From Thermoplasmatota archaeon (GTDB taxonomy: Archaea > Thermoplasmatota > E2 > DHVEG-1), in the NCBI GenBank assembly GCA_036626215.1, contig JAZKSG010000001.1:5634-69633 (forward strand): a DNA stretch of 64,000 nt, given 5' to 3'. The notes beneath the pieces were generated by a model. That model had not been told where the DNA came from, did no database searches, and saw nothing but the letters and a program-made list of their open reading frames with translations. Both the position numbers and the translations under genes were made by a program. This document shows, in pieces, positions 3,502 through 46,537 of this stretch (positions within the stretch are counted from its first letter, which is position 1; each line of letters opens with the position of its first letter).

Positions 3502-4266
3502 ATGAAACTCATCTCCTGGAACGTAAATGGAATTAGAGCAGCAAATCGTAAAGGATTTTTTGACTGGTTTCAGAAAGAATCACCAGATGTTTTATGTTTA
3601 CAGGAAATCAAAGCCTTGCCTAAACAAATCCCTCCACATCTTAAGAACACACCCGGATACCACACTTTTTTTAACTCAGCAGAAAGAAAAGGATACAGCG
3701 GTGTGGCCACATATACAAAGAAGCAACCAAAAAACGTAGAAAAAGGGATTTGGAATAAAAAAATTCGATCAAGAAGGAAGAACGCTAATAACAGAATATG
3801 AAGACTTCGTTTTATTCAACATATATTTTCCAAACGGTAAAAAAAATCAAAAAAGATTAGATTACAAACTAGATTTCTACGATACATTCTTAGCATATGC
3901 CGATAACCTAAAAGCTGAAGGAAAAAATATAGTAGTATGCGACGATTTCAACACAGCTCACAAACCAATAGATCTTGCACATCCTAAAGCCAATGAAAAA
4001 ACCTCAGGTTTTTTACCAGTTGAACGAGCATGGATTGATAGATTTATAGACCACGGATACGTTGACACATTCAGACAATTCAACAAACAACCTGAACAAT
4101 ATACCTGGTGGAGTATGCGAACAAGAGCAAGAGAAAGAAACGTTGGATGGAGACTGGATTATTTTTTTGTAAACGAAGGATTTATGCCAAACGTAAAAAA
4201 CGTGTTTATAATGCAAGATGTAAAAGGATCAGATCATTGCCCAGTAGGAATAGAAATAGAAATCTA
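3502..4266 (+). CDS. xth: Exodeoxyribonuclease III (Mth212/ExoA-like AP endonuclease), interrupted by a +1 frameshift in an A7 tract at 3757-3763
   Basis: N-terminus [23 protein letters not shown]...LCLQEIKA...[12 protein letters not shown]. After the A-run the reading frame continues in +1 as [25 protein letters not shown]...[13 protein letters not shown]...[23 protein letters not shown]...[13 protein letters not shown] and ends at 4266. Removing one A gives a continuous ~254-aa ExoIII. Confidence 0.8.
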
Positions 4267-39077: not shown

Positions 39078-39186
39078 AAAAATTGAATAGCAAAGAAAAT
39101 GTTGATATTTTTTAGGAAATTAATAGGTAGAAAAATTTATATTATATAGATAATTGTTTGAAAGGAAATCTGGTGGAATCATTAAA

Positions 39187-41397
39187 ATGAATAAAGAGGA
39201 AATTACTTTAAAAATATCAGAAGCATTTCAACAAGATGTAGGCTACGGCAGAGCACGTATCGATAATCAAACACGTGTAGAACTCGACTTATCTATAGGA
39301 GATGTCATAGAAATAGAAGGACAAAAAACTACCGCTGCAGTCGTATGGAGAGCACACCCAACCGACGAGGGAAAGAAAATACTGCGCATAGATAATCTTA
39401 CACGTAAAAACTGTGGTGCCGGACTAGGAGACAGAGTGAAAGTAAGAAAAGCAGACATAAACGAAGCTAAACAAGTAACTCTTGCACCTCTTATATCCAA
39501 AGGTCAACAGATACAATTTGGCAGAGGGATAGACAACCTAATCAAAAAAGGACTTCTTAAAAGACCTCTAACCAAAGGAGATAACGTCATAATCCCTGGT
39601 ATAGCCTTATTCGGGAGTTCGCTCCCTTTTGTCATAATCAACACCAACCCTAGCGGCATAGTATCAATTAACGAAAATACTAACATCAAAGTTAAAGAAG
39701 AAGCTGCCAAAACAGAGGATATGGAAGGACCAAGCGTAAGCTACGAAGACATCGGAGGTCTGAACGAAGAGATATCTAGAGTGCGTGAAATGATAGAGCT
39801 GCCTCTAAAACATCCAGAGTTGTTTGACCGACTGGGTATAGACCCGCCAAAAGGAGTTTTACTACATGGTCCTCCAGGAACAGGAAAAACACTGATAGCA
39901 AAGGCAGTGGCAAACGAATCCGGGGCAAACTTCTACACAATAAACGGCCCCGAAATCATGAGTAAATACTATGGGCAGAGTGAAGAAAATCTAAGGAAAA
40001 TTTTTGATGAGGCAGAAAAAAATGCGCCATCAATTGTTTTCATAGACGAAATCGATGCAATAGCCAGTAAAAGAGCTGAAACACACGGAGAAGTAGAAAA
40101 ACGTGTAGTGTCGCAACTTCTAACACTGATGGATGGGTTAAAAGGAAGAGGGAAAGTCATTGTTATAGGAGCCACAAACATACCAGATCAAGTAGACCCC
40201 GCACTTCGCCGGCCAGGCCGATTTGACCGAGAAATACGAATCGATGCACCAGATCGAGGAGGACGTAAAGAAATTCTACAAATACACACCCGTGGTATGC
40301 CAAAAGCAGAAAATATAGACCTTGAACAGCTAGCTGATATCACCTATGGATATGTAGGAGCAGACCTTGCAGCTCTTGCAAGAGAATCAGCGATGAATTC
40401 ACTTAGAAGATACCTACCCGAAATAAACCTAGACGAACCCATACCTGTAGACGTCCTAGAAAAAATGGAAGTCAACATGGATGATTTTAAAGAGGCACAT
40501 CGTGGTATCGAACCATCCGCGATGAGAGAATTTATTGTACAGGTACCAAAAGTATCGTGGGAAGACGTAGGTGGGTTAGAAAACGTTAAACAACAGTTGC
40601 GCGAAGCAGTAGAATGGCCGCTAACCAAAAAAGAAGTCTTTGAAAGAATGGGTATAGAAACACCAAGCGGAATTTTACTTTACGGCCCACCCGGAACTGG
40701 AAAAACATTACTAGCGAAAGCAGTGGCGCATGAATCAAAAGCTAATTTCATTTCAATAAAAGGACCAGAAGTTATGAGCAAATGGGTAGGCGAAAGTGAA
40801 AAAGCAGTAAGAGAATTATTCAAAAAAGCTCGACAGGTTGCACCAACCATAGTTTTCCTTGATGAACTAGACAGCATCGCTCCTCAGAGAGGCACCCACA
40901 CTGGCTCCCATGTCACAGATAGTGTGGTAAACCAACTGCTGACGAGTATCGACGGACTTGAAAGCATGGAAGGAGTCGTTGTAGTCGGTGCTACAAACAG
41001 ACCCGATATAATTGATCCCGGTCTGTTGAGACCTGGCCGTTTCGATAGACTTATATCTATTCCTTCACCAGATCGAAAAGCAAGATTAGAGATACTTAAA
41101 ATCCATACACGTCGTATGCCAATCGCAGATGACGTAGATCTAGAAGAATTAGCCGATAAAACAGAGAATTATTCAGGCGCAGACATTGAAGCATTATGCC
41201 GAGAGGCAGCAATGATAGCAATAAGACAGGACGAAAACGCTGATAAAGTAGAGATGAAACACTTTGATGAAGCCATGGAAAGTGTTAGAGCATCTATAAC
41301 CCCAGATATGAAAAACTTCTATGAGAAAATGTCTGGAGATCTTGGCAAGGGTGTAGCAAACAAAGACATAGAAAAAAGACAGTTAGATGTAGCCTAA
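39187..41397 (+). CDS. cdc48: CDC48/VCP-like AAA+ ATPase (two AAA domains)
   Basis: ~736 aa from ATG 39187. The tracked ORF starts 33 nt earlier at 39154. N-domain [22 protein letters not shown]1 and D2 Walker [10 protein letters not shown] twice. Walker B IVFIDEID / [11 protein letters not shown] motifs present. Confidence 0.9.
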
Positions 41398-41424
41398 AAT
41401 AAAACAGTTGTTCTCTACTCTTCT

Positions 41425-41447
41425 CTACTCTTTTTTTCTATTTTTAG
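41425..41447 (+). terminator. Oligo-T terminator candidate after cdc48, preceded by direct repeat CTCTACTCTTCTCTACTC
   Basis: ctctactcttctctactctttttttctattttt. Confidence 0.3.
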
Positions 41448-41519
41448 GGAAAAAGGATAAAAATAGATACTTCTATTCAATATACGAGATTCATTATAAA
41501 ATAAAGGAGGTAAAAAAAT

Positions 41520-41756
41520 ATGAAAATCACCGAAGATGAACTAAGAGGAAAAACAGTCATGAGTGAAGAAGGACTTTATCTAGGGGTTATGCGTAATTCA
41601 ACTACGGATAAAAAAACAGGTGAACTTGTAAACATTTTAGTAGAACCTTCAGAAGATGTAGACCCGAGACTTTATCATTTGGATGATGGGGGGAATCTTA
41701 TATTTCCATTCAAATCAATAAAATCAGTAAAAGACGTTATAATAATTGGTAACTAA
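41520..41756 (+). CDS. PRC-barrel domain protein
   Basis: 78 aa. LRGKTVMSEEGLYLGVMRNSTTDKKTGELVNILVEP. Upstream aaggagg SD. Confidence 0.5.
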   Translation: MKITEDELRGKTVMSEEGLYLGVMRNSTTDKKTGELVNILVEPSEDVDPRLYHLDDGGNLIFPFKSIKSVKDVIIIGN

Positions 41757-41921
41757 AACCAGTTTGCAGTTTGAAAATATAATTCATAAACCCTATCTTT
41801 TAGACTTTTTCTTAAAAATTTTACGTTTTTTTTTTGATAGATTTATAGTCTTCTATCTATCATGCAACATGATTTTTTTCCTAAAATTTTATCTAGAATA
41901 GAGAATAGTACGATAAAAGAG

Positions 41922-41946
41922 ACACCCCTTCATTTCGACTGGAAGA
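41922..41946 (-). promoter_or_regulatory. Origin recognition box (ORB), minus orientation
   Basis: Reverse complement reads TCTTCCAGTCGAAATGAAGGGGTGT. This matches the archaeal ORB consensus (TCCAGTGGAAA...GGGGT) with a terminal G-string. Confidence 0.65.
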
Positions 41947-42127
41947 GGATCAATGGCGGGGTATAGTTTCATATATAATATGTAAGACGTAAGTATAGAC
42001 AGCAACGTATTCGTTTAATGGTATTTCAATATTCTCATTTTTAAAAATATATTAATAGACAAATCTTTTTATTTTTTATTCAAAATCACAAAATTTGACA
42101 CTTTTTTGGCAACCCACACATTTTTCT

Positions 42128-42148
42128 TTTCCACATGAAACAAAGGCC
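42128..42148 (+). promoter_or_regulatory. mini-ORB-like element
   Basis: TTTCCACATGAAACAAAGGCC has the TCCA...GAAAC core but no G-string. Confidence 0.4.
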
Positions 42149-42264
42149 TATCCCATTATTGTTTTAACCAACTAATATTATAAACTAAAATCAATTTTTT
42201 AAGGAGTACCCTCCTAGAGATAGGTACTGAAAAATATAAACAAGTTTTTAATACCACCCTCCCA

Positions 42265-42288
42265 TTACACATGAAATGAAGGGGGAAT
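42265..42288 (+). promoter_or_regulatory. Origin recognition box (ORB), plus orientation, abutting orc1 start
   Basis: TTACACATGAAATGAAGGGGGAAT shares GAAATGAAGGGG exactly with the inverted ORB at 41922-41946. Confidence 0.6.
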
Positions 42289-42291
42289 ATT

Positions 42292-43554
42292 TTGGCGAAT
42301 AAGAAAAACACTGTTAACAGTGACATATTTGGTAGACTACTAAAATCTAACGGTATTTTTATGAACCGTGAGGCAATGCGCCCATCTTACATGCCTGATG
42401 TTTTACCACATAGGGAAAAAGAAATAGATAACTTAGCTTCTGTTCTTGTACCTGCTCTAAGAGGAGAAACACCTTCAAATGTTTTCATATATGGTAAAAC
42501 TGGAACTGGAAAAACAGCAGTTACTAAGTTTCTAGGGAAAGAACTTTTGAAGAAAGGTGAAGAAACAGGAAAAGACGTTAATTTTATTTATATTAACTGT
42601 GAAGTGGTCGACACACAATATCGTCTTCTCCAGAACATAACTAATCATTTTATTGAAGAGTGGTCTGAAAGAATTCCTTTTACCGGTTGGCCAACTGACC
42701 AAGTTTTTGCTAAGCTTAAAAAGATGATTGAAAAAAACGGTGGAGTAGCTGTCATCATACTCGATGAAATTGACAAGTTAAAAGGAGATGAAGCTCTCTA
42801 TAATCTTTCACGTATCAACAGCGACCTACAAAACGCCAAAGTTTCTATTGTAGGAATTTCAAATGATCTTAAATTCACTGAGTTTCTTGATCCACGGGTA
42901 AAATCTAGTCTCGGTGAAGAAAATATGATTTTTCCACCCTATAACGCTGGAGAACTACAAGACATTCTGCATCAAAGGGTAGATATTGCGTTGAGAGATA
43001 ACGCAGTAAGCGATGATGTGATCCCTCTCTGTGCTGCTCTTGCTGCACAGGAACATGGTGATGCCCGTAGAGCATTAGACCTTCTTCGTATGAGTGCTGA
43101 ACTTGTGGAACGAAGTGATTCTCCTAAAGTTACAAAAAAATTTGTTCGACTAGCTCAAAACAAGATAGAAGTAGATCGTGTTATAGAAGTAGTTAGAACA
43201 CTTCCCACTCAATCTAAACTTATCCTATTCGCTATTTTGTTGCAAGAAAAGCACAACAAGAAGACTGAGTCAGCTGCTGCTATAACTACAGGAGAGGTCT
43301 ATAGCGTCTATAAAAACCTTTGTAAAAGAACTCGGACAGATTGTTTAACCCAGCGAAGGGTGGCAGATCTTATTTCTGAGTTGGATATGCTTGGCATAAT
43401 TACAGCAAGGGTAATATCTAAGGGTAGATATGGCCGGACACGTGAAATCAAGATGTCTTCTTCTTCTGAAGAAATCGCTGATATTCTTAAGGAAGATGAG
43501 GTTTTTGAAGATCTATCTAATTATAAATTCCATGGACAGGCAAGATTGATTTAA
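42292..43554 (+). CDS. orc1: Orc1/Cdc6 replication initiator
   Basis: 420 aa with a TTG start. Walker A YGKTGTGKTA. Walker B VIILDEID. Sensor and C-terminal winged-helix region present. Confidence 0.9.
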   Translation: MANKKNTVNSDIFGRLLKSNGIFMNREAMRPSYMPDVLPHREKEIDNLASVLVPALRGETPSNVFIYGKTGTGKTAVTKFLGKELLKKGEETGKDVNFIYINCEVVDTQYRLLQNITNHFIEEWSERIPFTGWPTDQVFAKLKKMIEKNGGVAVIILDEIDKLKGDEALYNLSRINSDLQNAKVSIVGISNDLKFTEFLDPRVKSSLGEENMIFPPYNAGELQDILHQRVDIALRDNAVSDDVIPLCAALAAQEHGDARRALDLLRMSAELVERSDSPKVTKKFVRLAQNKIEVDRVIEVVRTLPTQSKLILFAILLQEKHNKKTESAAAITTGEVYSVYKNLCKRTRTDCLTQRRVADLISELDMLGIITARVISKGRYGRTREIKMSSSSEEIADILKEDEVFEDLSNYKFHGQARLI

Positions 43555-44009
43555 AAGATAGAAAATTTTCTTTTCCCTTTTTCATTTTATTTCATATTTT
43601 TTCTAAAAAACATTTTAAAAAATCTTGATTAAAAGTGTAATTAAGGGGGCCGGGGAAATTACAGTTTTTTTGTTGTTATCATGAAAGCCATGATTTCTTT
43701 TTGTTAGGAATCGGGAATTTTGGTAAGCCCCATCCTTTTACCCTCTCTTTCTTCTTTAACTCGTTCCACCGGTTTTCCCCCAAAAATTTACAAATAGAAT
43801 GTAATACGGAACGCATTATTAAACTTTTACAAATAAATTGATGCCGCCGTTGATAAGATAATGTTAGACTTAGAAACTATGCCTAAAATGCCAAAGCAAC
43901 GATTAATATCTGGGCATAATAAATATTTACTTTTATGTAACAAAGTTTATAAAATATAAAAACAAATATTATTATAGAAAGATATAATAAAATGATGGAT
44001 TGAAGGTAT

Positions 44010-44459
44010 ATGATAAAAAATAAAGAAATCATTGGACCGTTAATTATGACATTTCTTTTGATATCACTGTTTTGTATAATGCCTGTTTCTTCAGAAAAAG
44101 AAAAAAATTTTAAAAAAGAAGAGTTAAACAACTCAGGTATATTCGATAAACTTTCGGTTTTTTGCAAGATTAATTCTTCTGGGAAAGCCAGAATAGTAAC
44201 TGGAGGGGAAGGGTATCCTTCAAAGAATTCAAGTTTGACTATACTTATAGATATAGATTGCAGCGGAGAAGAATCCTACGGGGAGACTAATATAACCCCT
44301 ATGCTTGGATATGCTCCTTGGAATAAAAAAATAAATGGATCACATAGACTCATAATTTGGGGTTTCTGGGGTGATTTTCAGCGAGAAAATCTTGAAACCT
44401 CATCTGGACCCGTAGATTATACTTTGAATGGAAAAGCTCTATTTGTCCAAATAATATAA
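44010..44459 (+). CDS. Small secreted hypothetical protein
   Basis: 149 aa. Signal/TM IIGPLIMTFLLISLFCIMPVSS. No motif. Confidence 0.3.
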   Translation: MIKNKEIIGPLIMTFLLISLFCIMPVSSEKEKNFKKEELNNSGIFDKLSVFCKINSSGKARIVTGGEGYPSKNSSLTILIDIDCSGEESYGETNITPMLGYAPWNKKINGSHRLIIWGFWGDFQRENLETSSGPVDYTLNGKALFVQII

Positions 44460-44515: not shown

Positions 44516-46537
44516 TTATTGCGGGTATCCTCCAATTTTTAGGCTCGGGTCTCCAAGTAAAACCCATTGTTGAACTGTTTTAGCATGACCTGCAGGGACA
44601 TCTGACATGTCGAAAGTGTCAACATAGGTTTTTATTGATTCCATGAAAGCTTCTCCCAGTATTTCGTGGCCATGTTCACCATATTGTCTAAAGAATTCTA
44701 TAGTTATCCATCCGTCCCCACCATCAGTTGTGGATATTTTACCTATACGTCCATATCCTAATCCGGTGTTTCCTATAGTGGCTATAGCTCCCCCTTCTTT
44801 CAAACGTACAATATTCCAGCTGAAACATTCAGGTACAGGTGAACCATATGTCCACATCTGGTTGTCTTTTCCAAGCTGATAGTATAAGATGTGCATGATA
44901 GTTGGAATTAATGACACGTTGAACTGACTGTTATGGCATCCTCCTATAACCATCACAGGTAGCTTATCATCATTAGAAAGTTTATTCATTGGGTAATACG
45001 GGCGGTCAAGGAAGGATTTGAGTCTGTGTGGTTTTAGAGTTGTTACACGTAGACCTGTAACACTACCACCACTACGATCTCCTGGTACGCCGGGGTAATG
45101 GTCTGCCCAAACATTAGGGCTTCCATGTCCGGACATAAATACAAAACCATTTCCTTCGTTTAATGCCTCCATGACATCTTTTTCACCGGAGAAGCCGCCG
45201 TTTGAAGCCCAGAGTATATTCTTTTTGAATTCATCTGGCATATAGTATAATGCTCCTCCTCTACCCATCAGTTTTTTGTCGCCAGTTACCCATTCACCTT
45301 CATAGTACATTTCGGTGTTGTTTCTCCATTCGTTGAAAACCTTCTCACCGTCTTCGTTCTCTACCCATATATGCATATTTGTTGTGTTTCCATATGGTTT
45401 TGGGTCATATGATTTACCCCGTATATGCATTGTTTTGTTTTCGTAGCTGACGTTTGCCCAACCTGTAAATTCATTACAATAATCATTTGCTTGTGGGTCA
45501 AAAGATACATCATCTTTCCCTAAGACATCTCCATCTGATGGTGAAGTAATCTCTGCTATTGGTAGGGCAGGATATTGATTCACCTGTAGATTATCGTCAT
45601 GATTGAAAGTAACAGATGATTCTGATGAATGATTAACAGTTACTTTAACTATATCCAGATTTCCTTTTACTCCTTCTTTGTTGGTGCTTTGTCCATAAAT
45701 AGTATATTCACCAGATGGTAGACCACTACTGTTCCATTGGAAATCAAGGTCTTCTTGATCGAGGAAACCATCCCCGGATACCACTGTCATCTTTTTAAAC
45801 CATTCTTTTCCATACGTATTTTTCTCATAGTGAATTATTTTATCTACAACGTTTTTTACCTCTAGACGATTTCTGCATGCTAGACGACCAACTGCTATCT
45901 CTGGCGAGTAGTCTATGCCGCTGTCGTTTTTTTCAACACCAGGTTTATCATATACTGCAAAATAATCATCATTATTTGGATCCCAGCTGCTGAAAGTATC
46001 ATTTTCATCATATATATCTGCGTAGTATAAATCACTTATTACACCAGGGTCGTGAACATCTGAGGCAGATGCTGTAACAGTATTCAACGGATGCTTAGGG
46101 TTGTCATAAAAATTGGTATAACGAACAGGAACATACCAATGATCTGCTCCATAGTTTGCTGTGTCTCTAGGCCTAGCATATATTTTTGATTTTAAACCTC
46201 CAACCAGCAATAGGTATTTGATATTCCATTCATCATAGGCATGTTTCACAAAATATTTGATTTTCTCTGGTTTGTCTCGGCCGTCGTAGTTTTGATAGAT
46301 GTTGTCTGTCGTCTCCATAATTGTTTTTATGCCCATTTCTTCTTTATGATCAACTAACCTTTGTAATTGCCGGGTAAACGTTTTGTGGGTAATTATCAGC
46401 AAATCATATTCTGAATTTGTTGATGATTTTTCTATATTGTTACTCGTTGTTTCATTTGACTCTATTGCGAAAGCCCCAGCTGCGTTCAATAAAAACAGGC
46501 CTGCCACCAAAATAGGCAGTATTTTTTTTATATTCAT
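44516..46537 (-). CDS. Secreted clan-CD-like cysteine peptidase (gingipain C25 / clostripain C11-like) with C-terminal beta-rich extension
   Basis: 673 aa. Signal peptide MNIKKILPILVAGLFLLNAAGAFA. Candidate His-Gly / Cys dyad: FVFMSGHGSPNVW ... VMVIGGCHNSQFN, each preceded by a hydrophobic beta-strand, as in clan CD. Confidence 0.4.
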   Translation of the reverse strand: MNIKKILPILVAGLFLLNAAGAFAIESNETTSNNIEKSSTNSEYDLLIITHKTFTRQLQRLVDHKEEMGIKTIMETTDNIYQNYDGRDKPEKIKYFVKHAYDEWNIKYLLLVGGLKSKIYARPRDTANYGADHWYVPVRYTNFYDNPKHPLNTVTASASDVHDPGVISDLYYADIYDENDTFSSWDPNNDDYFAVYDKPGVEKNDSGIDYSPEIAVGRLACRNRLEVKNVVDKIIHYEKNTYGKEWFKKMTVVSGDGFLDQEDLDFQWNSSGLPSGEYTIYGQSTNKEGVKGNLDIVKVTVNHSSESSVTFNHDDNLQVNQYPALPIAEITSPSDGDVLGKDDVSFDPQANDYCNEFTGWANVSYENKTMHIRGKSYDPKPYGNTTNMHIWVENEDGEKVFNEWRNNTEMYYEGEWVTGDKKLMGRGGALYYMPDEFKKNILWASNGGFSGEKDVMEALNEGNGFVFMSGHGSPNVWADHYPGVPGDRSGGSVTGLRVTTLKPHRLKSFLDRPYYPMNKLSNDDKLPVMVIGGCHNSQFNVSLIPTIMHILYYQLGKDNQMWTYGSPVPECFSWNIVRLKEGGAIATIGNTGLGYGRIGKISTTDGGDGWITIEFFRQYGEHGHEILGEAFMESIKTYVDTFDMSDVPAGHAKTVQQWVLLGDPSLKIGGYPQ

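Follow-up and report, generated by a model that had tools for sequence, protein, structure and literature searches.

Where does an uncultured archaeon begin to replicate its chromosome? The question is raised by a gap of 535 bp (41757-42291) in a 64,000-nt stretch of DNA from a Thermoplasmatota archaeon (contig JAZKSG010000001.1 of assembly GCA_036626215.1; the whole 64-kb stretch is hereafter the window), which separates a gene for a PRC-barrel protein from orc1/cdc6, the gene for a replication initiator. The first-pass annotation of the window had described the gap as a replication origin, with inverted origin recognition boxes (ORBs) and an AT-rich unwinding region upstream of orc1. We judge from the sequence that the gap is probably, at roughly 85%, the chromosomal replication origin of this organism, of the oriC1 type and dependent on Orc1-1. 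The proposal is upheld by ORBs that are unique within the window, by an initiator that is clearly an Orc1-1 orthologue on sequence comparison, and by an architecture that is conserved in relatives.

The ORBs carry the first part of the argument. Three ORB-like elements had been reported in the gap, namely TCTTCCAGTCGAAATGAAGGGGTGT on the minus strand at 41922-41946, TTTCCACATGAAAC at 42128-42141 and TTACACATGAAATGAAGGGGGAAT on the plus strand at 42265-42288, and all of them lie where they had been placed and read as quoted. The 12-mer GAAATGAAGGGG, said to be shared by the outer two, has exactly two copies in 64 kb, inverted to each other and both inside the gap. When the window was searched with the 20-nt consensus TTCCACANGAAAYRAAGGGG, allowing at most three mismatches, only three matches were found, all in the gap and each within two mismatches of the consensus: 41925-41944 on the minus strand (ORB-L), 42129-42148 on the plus strand (ORB-R1) and 42265-42284 on the plus strand (ORB-R2). 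Dinucleotide-preserving shuffles (n = 100) gave an expectation of 0.09 matches per 64 kb, and none of them reached three. A 20-nt weight matrix trained on the ORBs of relatives alone, with the window left out, scored the three sites at 25.9 to 28.1 bits (Table 1), compared with 17.1 bits for the next-best site in the window and a null maximum per 64 kb of 14.2 +/- 2.8. ORB-L opposes the other two, and the G-strings of all three point outward.

ORB-L and ORB-R1 face each other across 184 bp. ORB-L, whose dyad end is turned toward the AT-rich spacer, matches 20 of the 23 positions of the archaeal consensus in the literature, CTTCCAGTGGAAACGAAAGGGGT; its spacing is 1 nt shorter, as in the ORBs of Methanomassiliicoccales. 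ORB-R1 has the top score in the window and a mini-ORB-like form, in which a degenerate G-string (GGCC) is followed by a C-rich tail to 42154.

The protein that would bind these boxes is encoded immediately downstream. By Pfam, it has AAA/AAA_22, Cdc6_lid and Cdc6_C (winged-helix) domains. It matches Sulfolobus solfataricus Orc1-1 (2qby_A) with an E-value of 1e-112 in an alignment spanning residues 20-408, and Aeropyrum pernix ORC1 (2v1u_A) with an E-value of 2e-101; both of these structures were solved on ORB DNA. Inspection of the 2qby_A alignment indicates that the DNA-contact elements are kept, namely the TQRRV recognition helix, the GRYG(K/R)T wing and PFTG. NCBI lists the identical sequence (100%) as "ORC1-type DNA replication protein" in a Thermoplasmatota metagenome-assembled genome, whereas an exact look-up in the contig index gave no hit; metagenome proteins about 80% identical to it number in the hundreds. 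Because an in-frame TGA occupies 42277-42279, the TTG at 42292 is the first canonical start codon of orc1.

Comparison with relatives supports the origin reading most strongly where neutral sequence has lost its signal. We compared 86 related loci, counting upstream ORBs only at loci whose orc1-upstream DNA is included; a single-protein scan of genome contigs returned only 4 loci, an alignment-based metagenome scan 80. In nearly all relatives with 69-84% Orc1 identity, a full minus-strand ORB lies between -279 and -352 relative to the start of orc1 (at -590 in L003), and in most close relatives it is accompanied by a plus-strand ORB at about -114 to -185. The succession of full minus-strand ORB, AT-rich spacer and plus-strand ORB recurs in 26 related Thermoplasmatota loci. 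In the flanks of close relatives, sites with at most three mismatches are confined to the region upstream of orc1, with the sole exception of one at +968 in L032. An alignment of 12 orc1-upstream regions (alignment A2) reveals one common order: ORB(-), a motif resembling GTGAGTAT, GACGT(R)AGTAT, a 45-bp AT-rich block beginning GTATTTGAATATTCnCATTTTTAAAAATATA, ORB(+) with a weak G-string (GGCC or CCCC) followed by CTCCC, a purine-rich patch, the TATA-like TTTAATAT, ATTACA, a GGAGG Shine-Dalgarno site and the start codon. Invariant columns include CCCCT, TTTC and TGGA in ORB-L, TCCA, GAAA and AAGG in ORB-R1, and a run at 42022-42051 in the AT-rich block. The window is 82% identical to relatives in ORB-L, 83% in ORB-R1 and 79% in the AT-rich block, whereas the spacers between them reach 23-48% and the flank at 41880-41924 only 33%. 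When the window is compared with relatives, identity at the four-fold-degenerate sites of orc1 is 29-44%, which amounts to saturation. The origin layout is under purifying selection in relatives, and this supports the origin reading, because the ORBs and the AT-rich block remain 79-83% identical while the four-fold sites of the adjacent gene are saturated. It also corrects one detail of the first-pass annotation, which had paired the left ORB with the element at 42265-42288. Judged by the alignment, the evolutionarily conserved inverted pair is ORB-L with ORB-R1, which the annotation had labelled a mini-ORB, and the box at 42265-42284 is found in this genome only.

Table 1. Features of the gap and its two flanking genes, in window coordinates
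Feature	Coordinates	Strand	Sequence or product	Remarks
PRC-barrel protein gene	41520-41756	+	78 aa	Pfam PF05239, E 7e-6; conserved left neighbour of the origin
T10 tract	41826-41835	+		Read from the sequence; 3' of the PRC-barrel gene, outside the conserved origin core
ORB-L (full ORB)	41925-41944	-	TTCCAGTCGAAATGAAGGGG	2 mismatches to consensus; 27.0 bits
Non-ORB motif	41986-41995	+	GACGTAAGTA	Clade consensus GACGT(N)AGTA; single copy in the window
Conserved AT-rich block	42020-42064		GGTATTTCAATATTCTCATTTTTAAAAATATATTAATAGACAAAT	Contains palindrome ATTTTTAAAAAT; 79% identity to 11 relatives
ORB-R1	42129-42148	+	TTCCACATGAAACAAAGGCC	28.1 bits; conserved inverted partner of ORB-L
TATA-box-like element of the putative orc1 promoter	42245-42253	+	TTTTTAATA	Aligns with TACATAAnnTTTAATAT, conserved in relatives
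ORB-R2	42265-42284	+	TTACACATGAAATGAAGGGG	1 mismatch to consensus; 25.9 bits; same orientation as ORB-R1
orc1/cdc6	42292-43554	+	420 aa, Orc1-1 type initiator	TTG start 6 nt after GGGGG

The DNA between the conserved boxes is AT-rich, but less extremely so than first described. The spacer at 41947-42126 is 73% AT, compared with 64% for the window. The annotation had put the roughly 320 bp between the outer elements above 80% AT and had called the gap nearly devoid of G and C; the 318 bp in question are 71.7% AT, the whole gap is 72.0% AT, and values of 81-88% are found only in a core some 50-90 bp long (42025-42110), with 88% at 42025-42074. By nearest-neighbour duplex stability, 42029-42078 ranks as the sixth least stable 50-bp stretch in the window. 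The conserved block at 42020-42064 is a candidate core of the duplex-unwinding element (DUE). Scans of the whole window for tRNAs and Rfam families returned no match, so that no RNA gene accounts for the conserved blocks. Several other intergenic stretches equal or exceed the gap in AT-richness or instability; AT-richness alone does not single out the origin, because the spacer is not the stability minimum of the window.

Within this unwinding region lie two conserved elements that are not ORBs. For the motif GACGT(N)AGTA, the origin intergenic DNA of 27 close loci (11 kb) holds 18 copies and the 199 kb outside it only two, an enrichment of about 160-fold; in the origin gaps it is always on the plus strand and its position is conserved. 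Both this motif and the block GTATTTGAATATT-N3-ATTTTTAAAA are strictly positioned and origin-specific in this Thermoplasmatota clade.

The third box, ORB-R2, belongs to a different setting. It shares the exact 12-mer with ORB-L and sits between the TATA-like box, to which we assign that role because it lies some 45 nt before the start codon, and the TTG; it overlaps the conserved ATTACA, the G-run of the Shine-Dalgarno site (42281-42285) and the region in which transcription is predicted to start. The 24-nt element described earlier ends 3 nt before the TTG, and not 4 nt as had been stated. No sampled relative has ORB-R2, and identity to relatives at this place is 50%; they carry ATTACA-N(9-14)-GGAGG instead, that is, promoter-proximal sequence and a Shine-Dalgarno site. 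We nevertheless count 42265-42284 as a genuine third ORB in the window, because its middle, CATGAAATGAA, fits the ORB consensus at every specified position, which the leaders of relatives do not. It reads as a lineage-specific gain. TTACA variants exist among the predicted ORBs of Methanomassiliicoccales, and more distant lineages (L034-L037) independently have an ORB at -17 to -19 whose G-run acts as the ribosome-binding site, which makes an ORB on the orc1 leader a recurrent arrangement. By analogy with ORB1 of Sulfolobus oriC1, ORB-R2 most likely adds an extra Orc1 site.

Could ORB-R2 also be an operator? In position it has what an autoregulatory operator would need, an ORB lying over the promoter, the predicted transcription start and the ribosome-binding region of the initiator gene, and negative autoregulation is plausible because the box covers the predicted transcription start together with the Shine-Dalgarno site. 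From this placement we give the repression of orc1 by its own product through ORB-R2 somewhat less than an even chance. ORB-R2 is in any case not a conserved requirement, since all sampled relatives lack it.

A mechanism can be proposed by transfer from Sulfolobus, Aeropyrum and Pyrococcus. One Orc1 monomer would occupy each of 41925-41944 and 42129-42148 with fixed polarity, its winged-helix domain on the TTCCA...GAAA dyad and the initiator-specific motif of its AAA+ domain on the G-string. Two opposed, ATP-bound monomers would then recruit MCM hexamers into the intervening DNA, melting would occur in the block that contains T5A5, and replication would proceed bidirectionally. Orc1 bound at ORB-R2 would lie over the ribosome-binding site as well as the predicted start of transcription. 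The layout agrees with what has been published on such origins: ORB(-)/DUE/ORB(+) has been described as the minimal functional archaeal origin, and according to reviews opposed ORBs direct MCM loading between them.

How does the locus compare with known origins? In oriC1 of Sulfolobus, a single Orc1-1 monomer binds to each ORB with a defined polarity, neither of the inverted boxes ORB2 and ORB3 can be dispensed with, MCM is recruited into the DUE between them by ATP-bound Orc1-1, and an 11-bp non-ORB motif in the DUE, ucm, which is bound by the protein UBP, is also required. The present locus is similarly adjacent to orc1-1, with three ORBs of which two are inverted around an AT-rich DUE, and with a conserved non-ORB motif inside it. 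It differs in that 184 bp separate the two ORBs here, whereas the entire ORB3-DUE-ORB2 of Sulfolobus measures 130 bp; in that the ORBs are 1 nt shorter from dyad to G-string and have CGAAA/TGAAA in place of GGAAA as the second half-site; and in the position of the third ORB, which lies on the orc1 promoter and leader. The origins of Methanomassiliicoccales, which are computational predictions only, share the 22-nt ORB form (for example, GTTCCAGTGGAAATGA-AGGGGT), the inverted pairs beside orc1/cdc6.1 and, in their TTACA/TTGCA variants, a resemblance to ORB-R2; unlike the origin described here, they keep a GGAAA half-site and a GGGGT G-string in both partners, with spacings of 39-256 bp. Haloarchaeal oriC1 (Halobacterium, Haloferax and Haloarcula) likewise has inverted ORBs of the same polarity around an AT-rich region upstream of cdc6/orc1, and its ORB core TTCCACNCGAAAC(G/A)AAGGGG, as seen in L068-L083, is nearly the same as that of the clade. 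Different from the present case are its extended G-string GGGGTGGGGG, which is needed for function, and its setting in GC-rich genomes at 600-1700 bp from the gene.

Specific to the clade are CGAAA/TGAAA as second half-site, a right ORB whose G-string is degenerate and the conserved internal motifs, to which this genome adds an extra ORB. Taken as a whole, the gap has what defines origins of this class in sequence, namely a position next to orc1, at least two ORBs above chance, an inverted pair, AT-rich DNA between its members and a conserved architecture. It shows no structural difference from the "Type I, initiator-adjacent" class of Ori-Finder-Arch/DoriC, whose stated properties it has and whose pipeline has produced 17,472 predicted oriCs, Thermoplasmatota included. 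By these sequence features, we class the locus as a further example of the known Orc1-dependent oriC class.

Several observations weigh against this reading. The spacer, at 73% AT, does not hold the stability minimum of the window; this lies in intergenic DNA downstream of orc1, at 43901-44080, where 100-180 bp are more AT-rich and less stable than anywhere else in the window and where no ORB is present. ORB-R1 is without a proper G-string. ORB-R2 is not conserved, has an A where relatives have an invariant C, and drops from 25.9 bits with the core matrix to 3.6 bits with a 29-nt matrix that adds clade-specific flanks to the ORB core, as the 3' extension of the clade is missing. Raw cumulative GC skew over the 64-kb fragment does not invert at 42 kb and tracks gene orientation. 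Plus-strand GC skew at third codon positions (GC3 skew), taken as the mean over the two gene orientations in the same 64 kb, is about +0.03 to the left and about +0.04 to the right of the origin, with a per-gene standard deviation of 0.09-0.19. Firing in vivo cannot be assumed either, as some archaea have dormant or dispensable origins. With regard to skew, G exceeds C by +0.1 to +0.2 on the coding strand of nearly every open reading frame, and the raw skew therefore mirrors gene orientation; because skew here follows the coding strand, and because the window covers only 64 kb, it is uninformative on the origin. The first-pass annotation had held that its proposal would fall if the skew failed to invert and ORB-like sequences were also frequent elsewhere. 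No inversion is seen, but ORBs are not found elsewhere in the window, and since both conditions were required together, the origin is not refuted.

One rival reading is that the ORBs are real Orc1 sites at a locus that is dormant or vestigial as an origin, or that serves only as an operator for orc1, while replication starts elsewhere or by another mechanism. Besides the missing skew switch and a spacer that is not exceptionally unstable, it can draw on dormant but correctly predicted origins in Haloferax mediterranei, on the position of ORB-R2 over the orc1 promoter and on Orc1 paralogues that can act as regulators of transcription (Orc1-2). The conserved unit is nevertheless more than a simple operator needs, since it consists of opposed ORBs and an AT-rich block some 100-250 bp upstream of the promoter; the protein is an Orc1-1 orthologue and not a regulator of the Orc1-2 type, and the fact that many metagenome lineages conserve it speaks for an essential function. 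We consider an inactive locus quite unlikely. Could the origin and its orc1 have come instead from an integrated plasmid or virus-derived element, and so be something other than the primary origin of the chromosome? Secondary origins in archaea are thought to derive from captured extrachromosomal elements, according to a review, and our view is limited to 64 kb of the genome. But the neighbours are housekeeping genes (Cdc48, Hsp20, a phosphoenolpyruvate synthase/PPDK-type enzyme that utilises phosphoenolpyruvate, glutamine synthetase, glutamate dehydrogenase, NAD kinase and Pth2), and the order Cdc48 - PRC barrel - origin - orc1 (39154-41756 for the genes left of the origin) is kept in L001, L004, L016-L024 and L085; from the neighbours and this synteny the locus is taken to be chromosomal. 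In addition, Orc1 stays about 80% identical across hundreds of metagenome sequences, and no integrase, tRNA or repeat boundary is seen in the window, all of which makes such an import very improbable. The resemblance to ORBs might, finally, be a coincidence produced by the promoter, leader and Shine-Dalgarno site of orc1 together with terminator sequence of the upstream gene: ORB-R2 is built on ATTACA and a GGGGG Shine-Dalgarno, such elements occur in relatives as well, and the organism uses strong Shine-Dalgarno sites. An accident fits neither the three matches, where 0.09 are expected, nor the 150-370 bp that separate the well-conserved ORB-L and ORB-R1 from the start codon, nor the complete fit of the ORB-R2 middle, in contrast to the leaders of relatives. 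Shuffle counts, matrix scores and conservation effectively refute coincidence.

Some further observations were made around the boxes. The dyad TTCCATTGGAAATCAAGGTC at 45732-45751 on the plus strand, within a gene for a C25 peptidase (44516-46537, minus strand), is nearly perfect and mini-ORB-like. Its 17.1 bits make it the fourth-best site in the window but lie inside the range of the null maximum; it is probably due to chance and was rejected as a further ORB. An ORB-like repeat 3' of orc1 (43628-43649) is weak, at chance level and not significant. In relatives (L001, L008, L011, L013, L019, L023, L024 and others), the left ORB has a G-string that continues as a palindrome, GGGG-T/A-CCCC(C), which recalls the G-rich inverted repeat reported as enhancing Haloarcula hispanica oriC1; the ORBs of the window are without this extension (41919-41924, GGGGTGTCTC). 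Between ORB-R1 and the TATA-like box, 42175-42244 carries extra sequence relative to most relatives and holds small palindromes, AGGAG-TACC-CTCCT and, at about 42203-42230, AGTACC...GGTACT.

To the left of the origin, the T10 tract resembles an archaeal oligo-T terminator, a function suggested by its sequence. PRC-barrel proteins are linked to FtsZ-based cell division in archaea. L085 and L086 have an inserted gene, with a product that matches Pfam 2-oxoacid_dh, between PRC-barrel gene and origin, and L011 apparently has an insertion there too, so that the left boundary of the origin region is variable.

The start of orc1 deserves attention of its own. In 10-11 of about 24 distinct close loci, no ATG, GTG or TTG occurs between the in-frame upstream stop and the conserved N-terminus VNSDIFG (L003, L004/L005, L006, L011, L012, L014, L017, L019, L023 and L024, at about locus position 3989 or 2489), and these residues are clearly coding, because synonymous changes are found there. 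At Shine-Dalgarno spacing (about 8-11 nt), some 12 distinct loci have the codon ACG, three have ATT, three ATG and one GTG; more distant groups have ATG at that spacing. Database gene calls for Orc1 of the relatives are shortened accordingly, as in P0057 (392 aa), which starts at Met29. This suggests that orc1 of these relatives is initiated at a non-canonical ACG or ATT; the window itself, at 42281-42297, has TTG. A literature search on ACG start codons in archaea returned nothing relevant. We tentatively suggest, while holding it on balance unlikely, that GACGT(N)AGTA and the GTATTTGAATATT-N3-ATTTTTAAAA block may be sites of an accessory origin factor with a role like that of ucm and UBP, and that the ACG or ATT starts may act as a translational throttle on the initiator.

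What does the locus contribute? It changes no concept, as orc1-adjacent origins of such architecture are textbook knowledge and have been annotated by the thousands, and only two points may appeal to specialists, namely the conserved motifs other than ORBs and the non-AUG codons at which orc1 of relatives apparently starts. What is gained is the probable replication start of an uncultured Thermoplasmatota lineage, together with an origin map and a clade-specific ORB consensus, TTCCACAYGAAAYRAAGGGG, which may be of use for orienting genomes, for estimating growth rates from metagenome read depth and for tools that predict origins.

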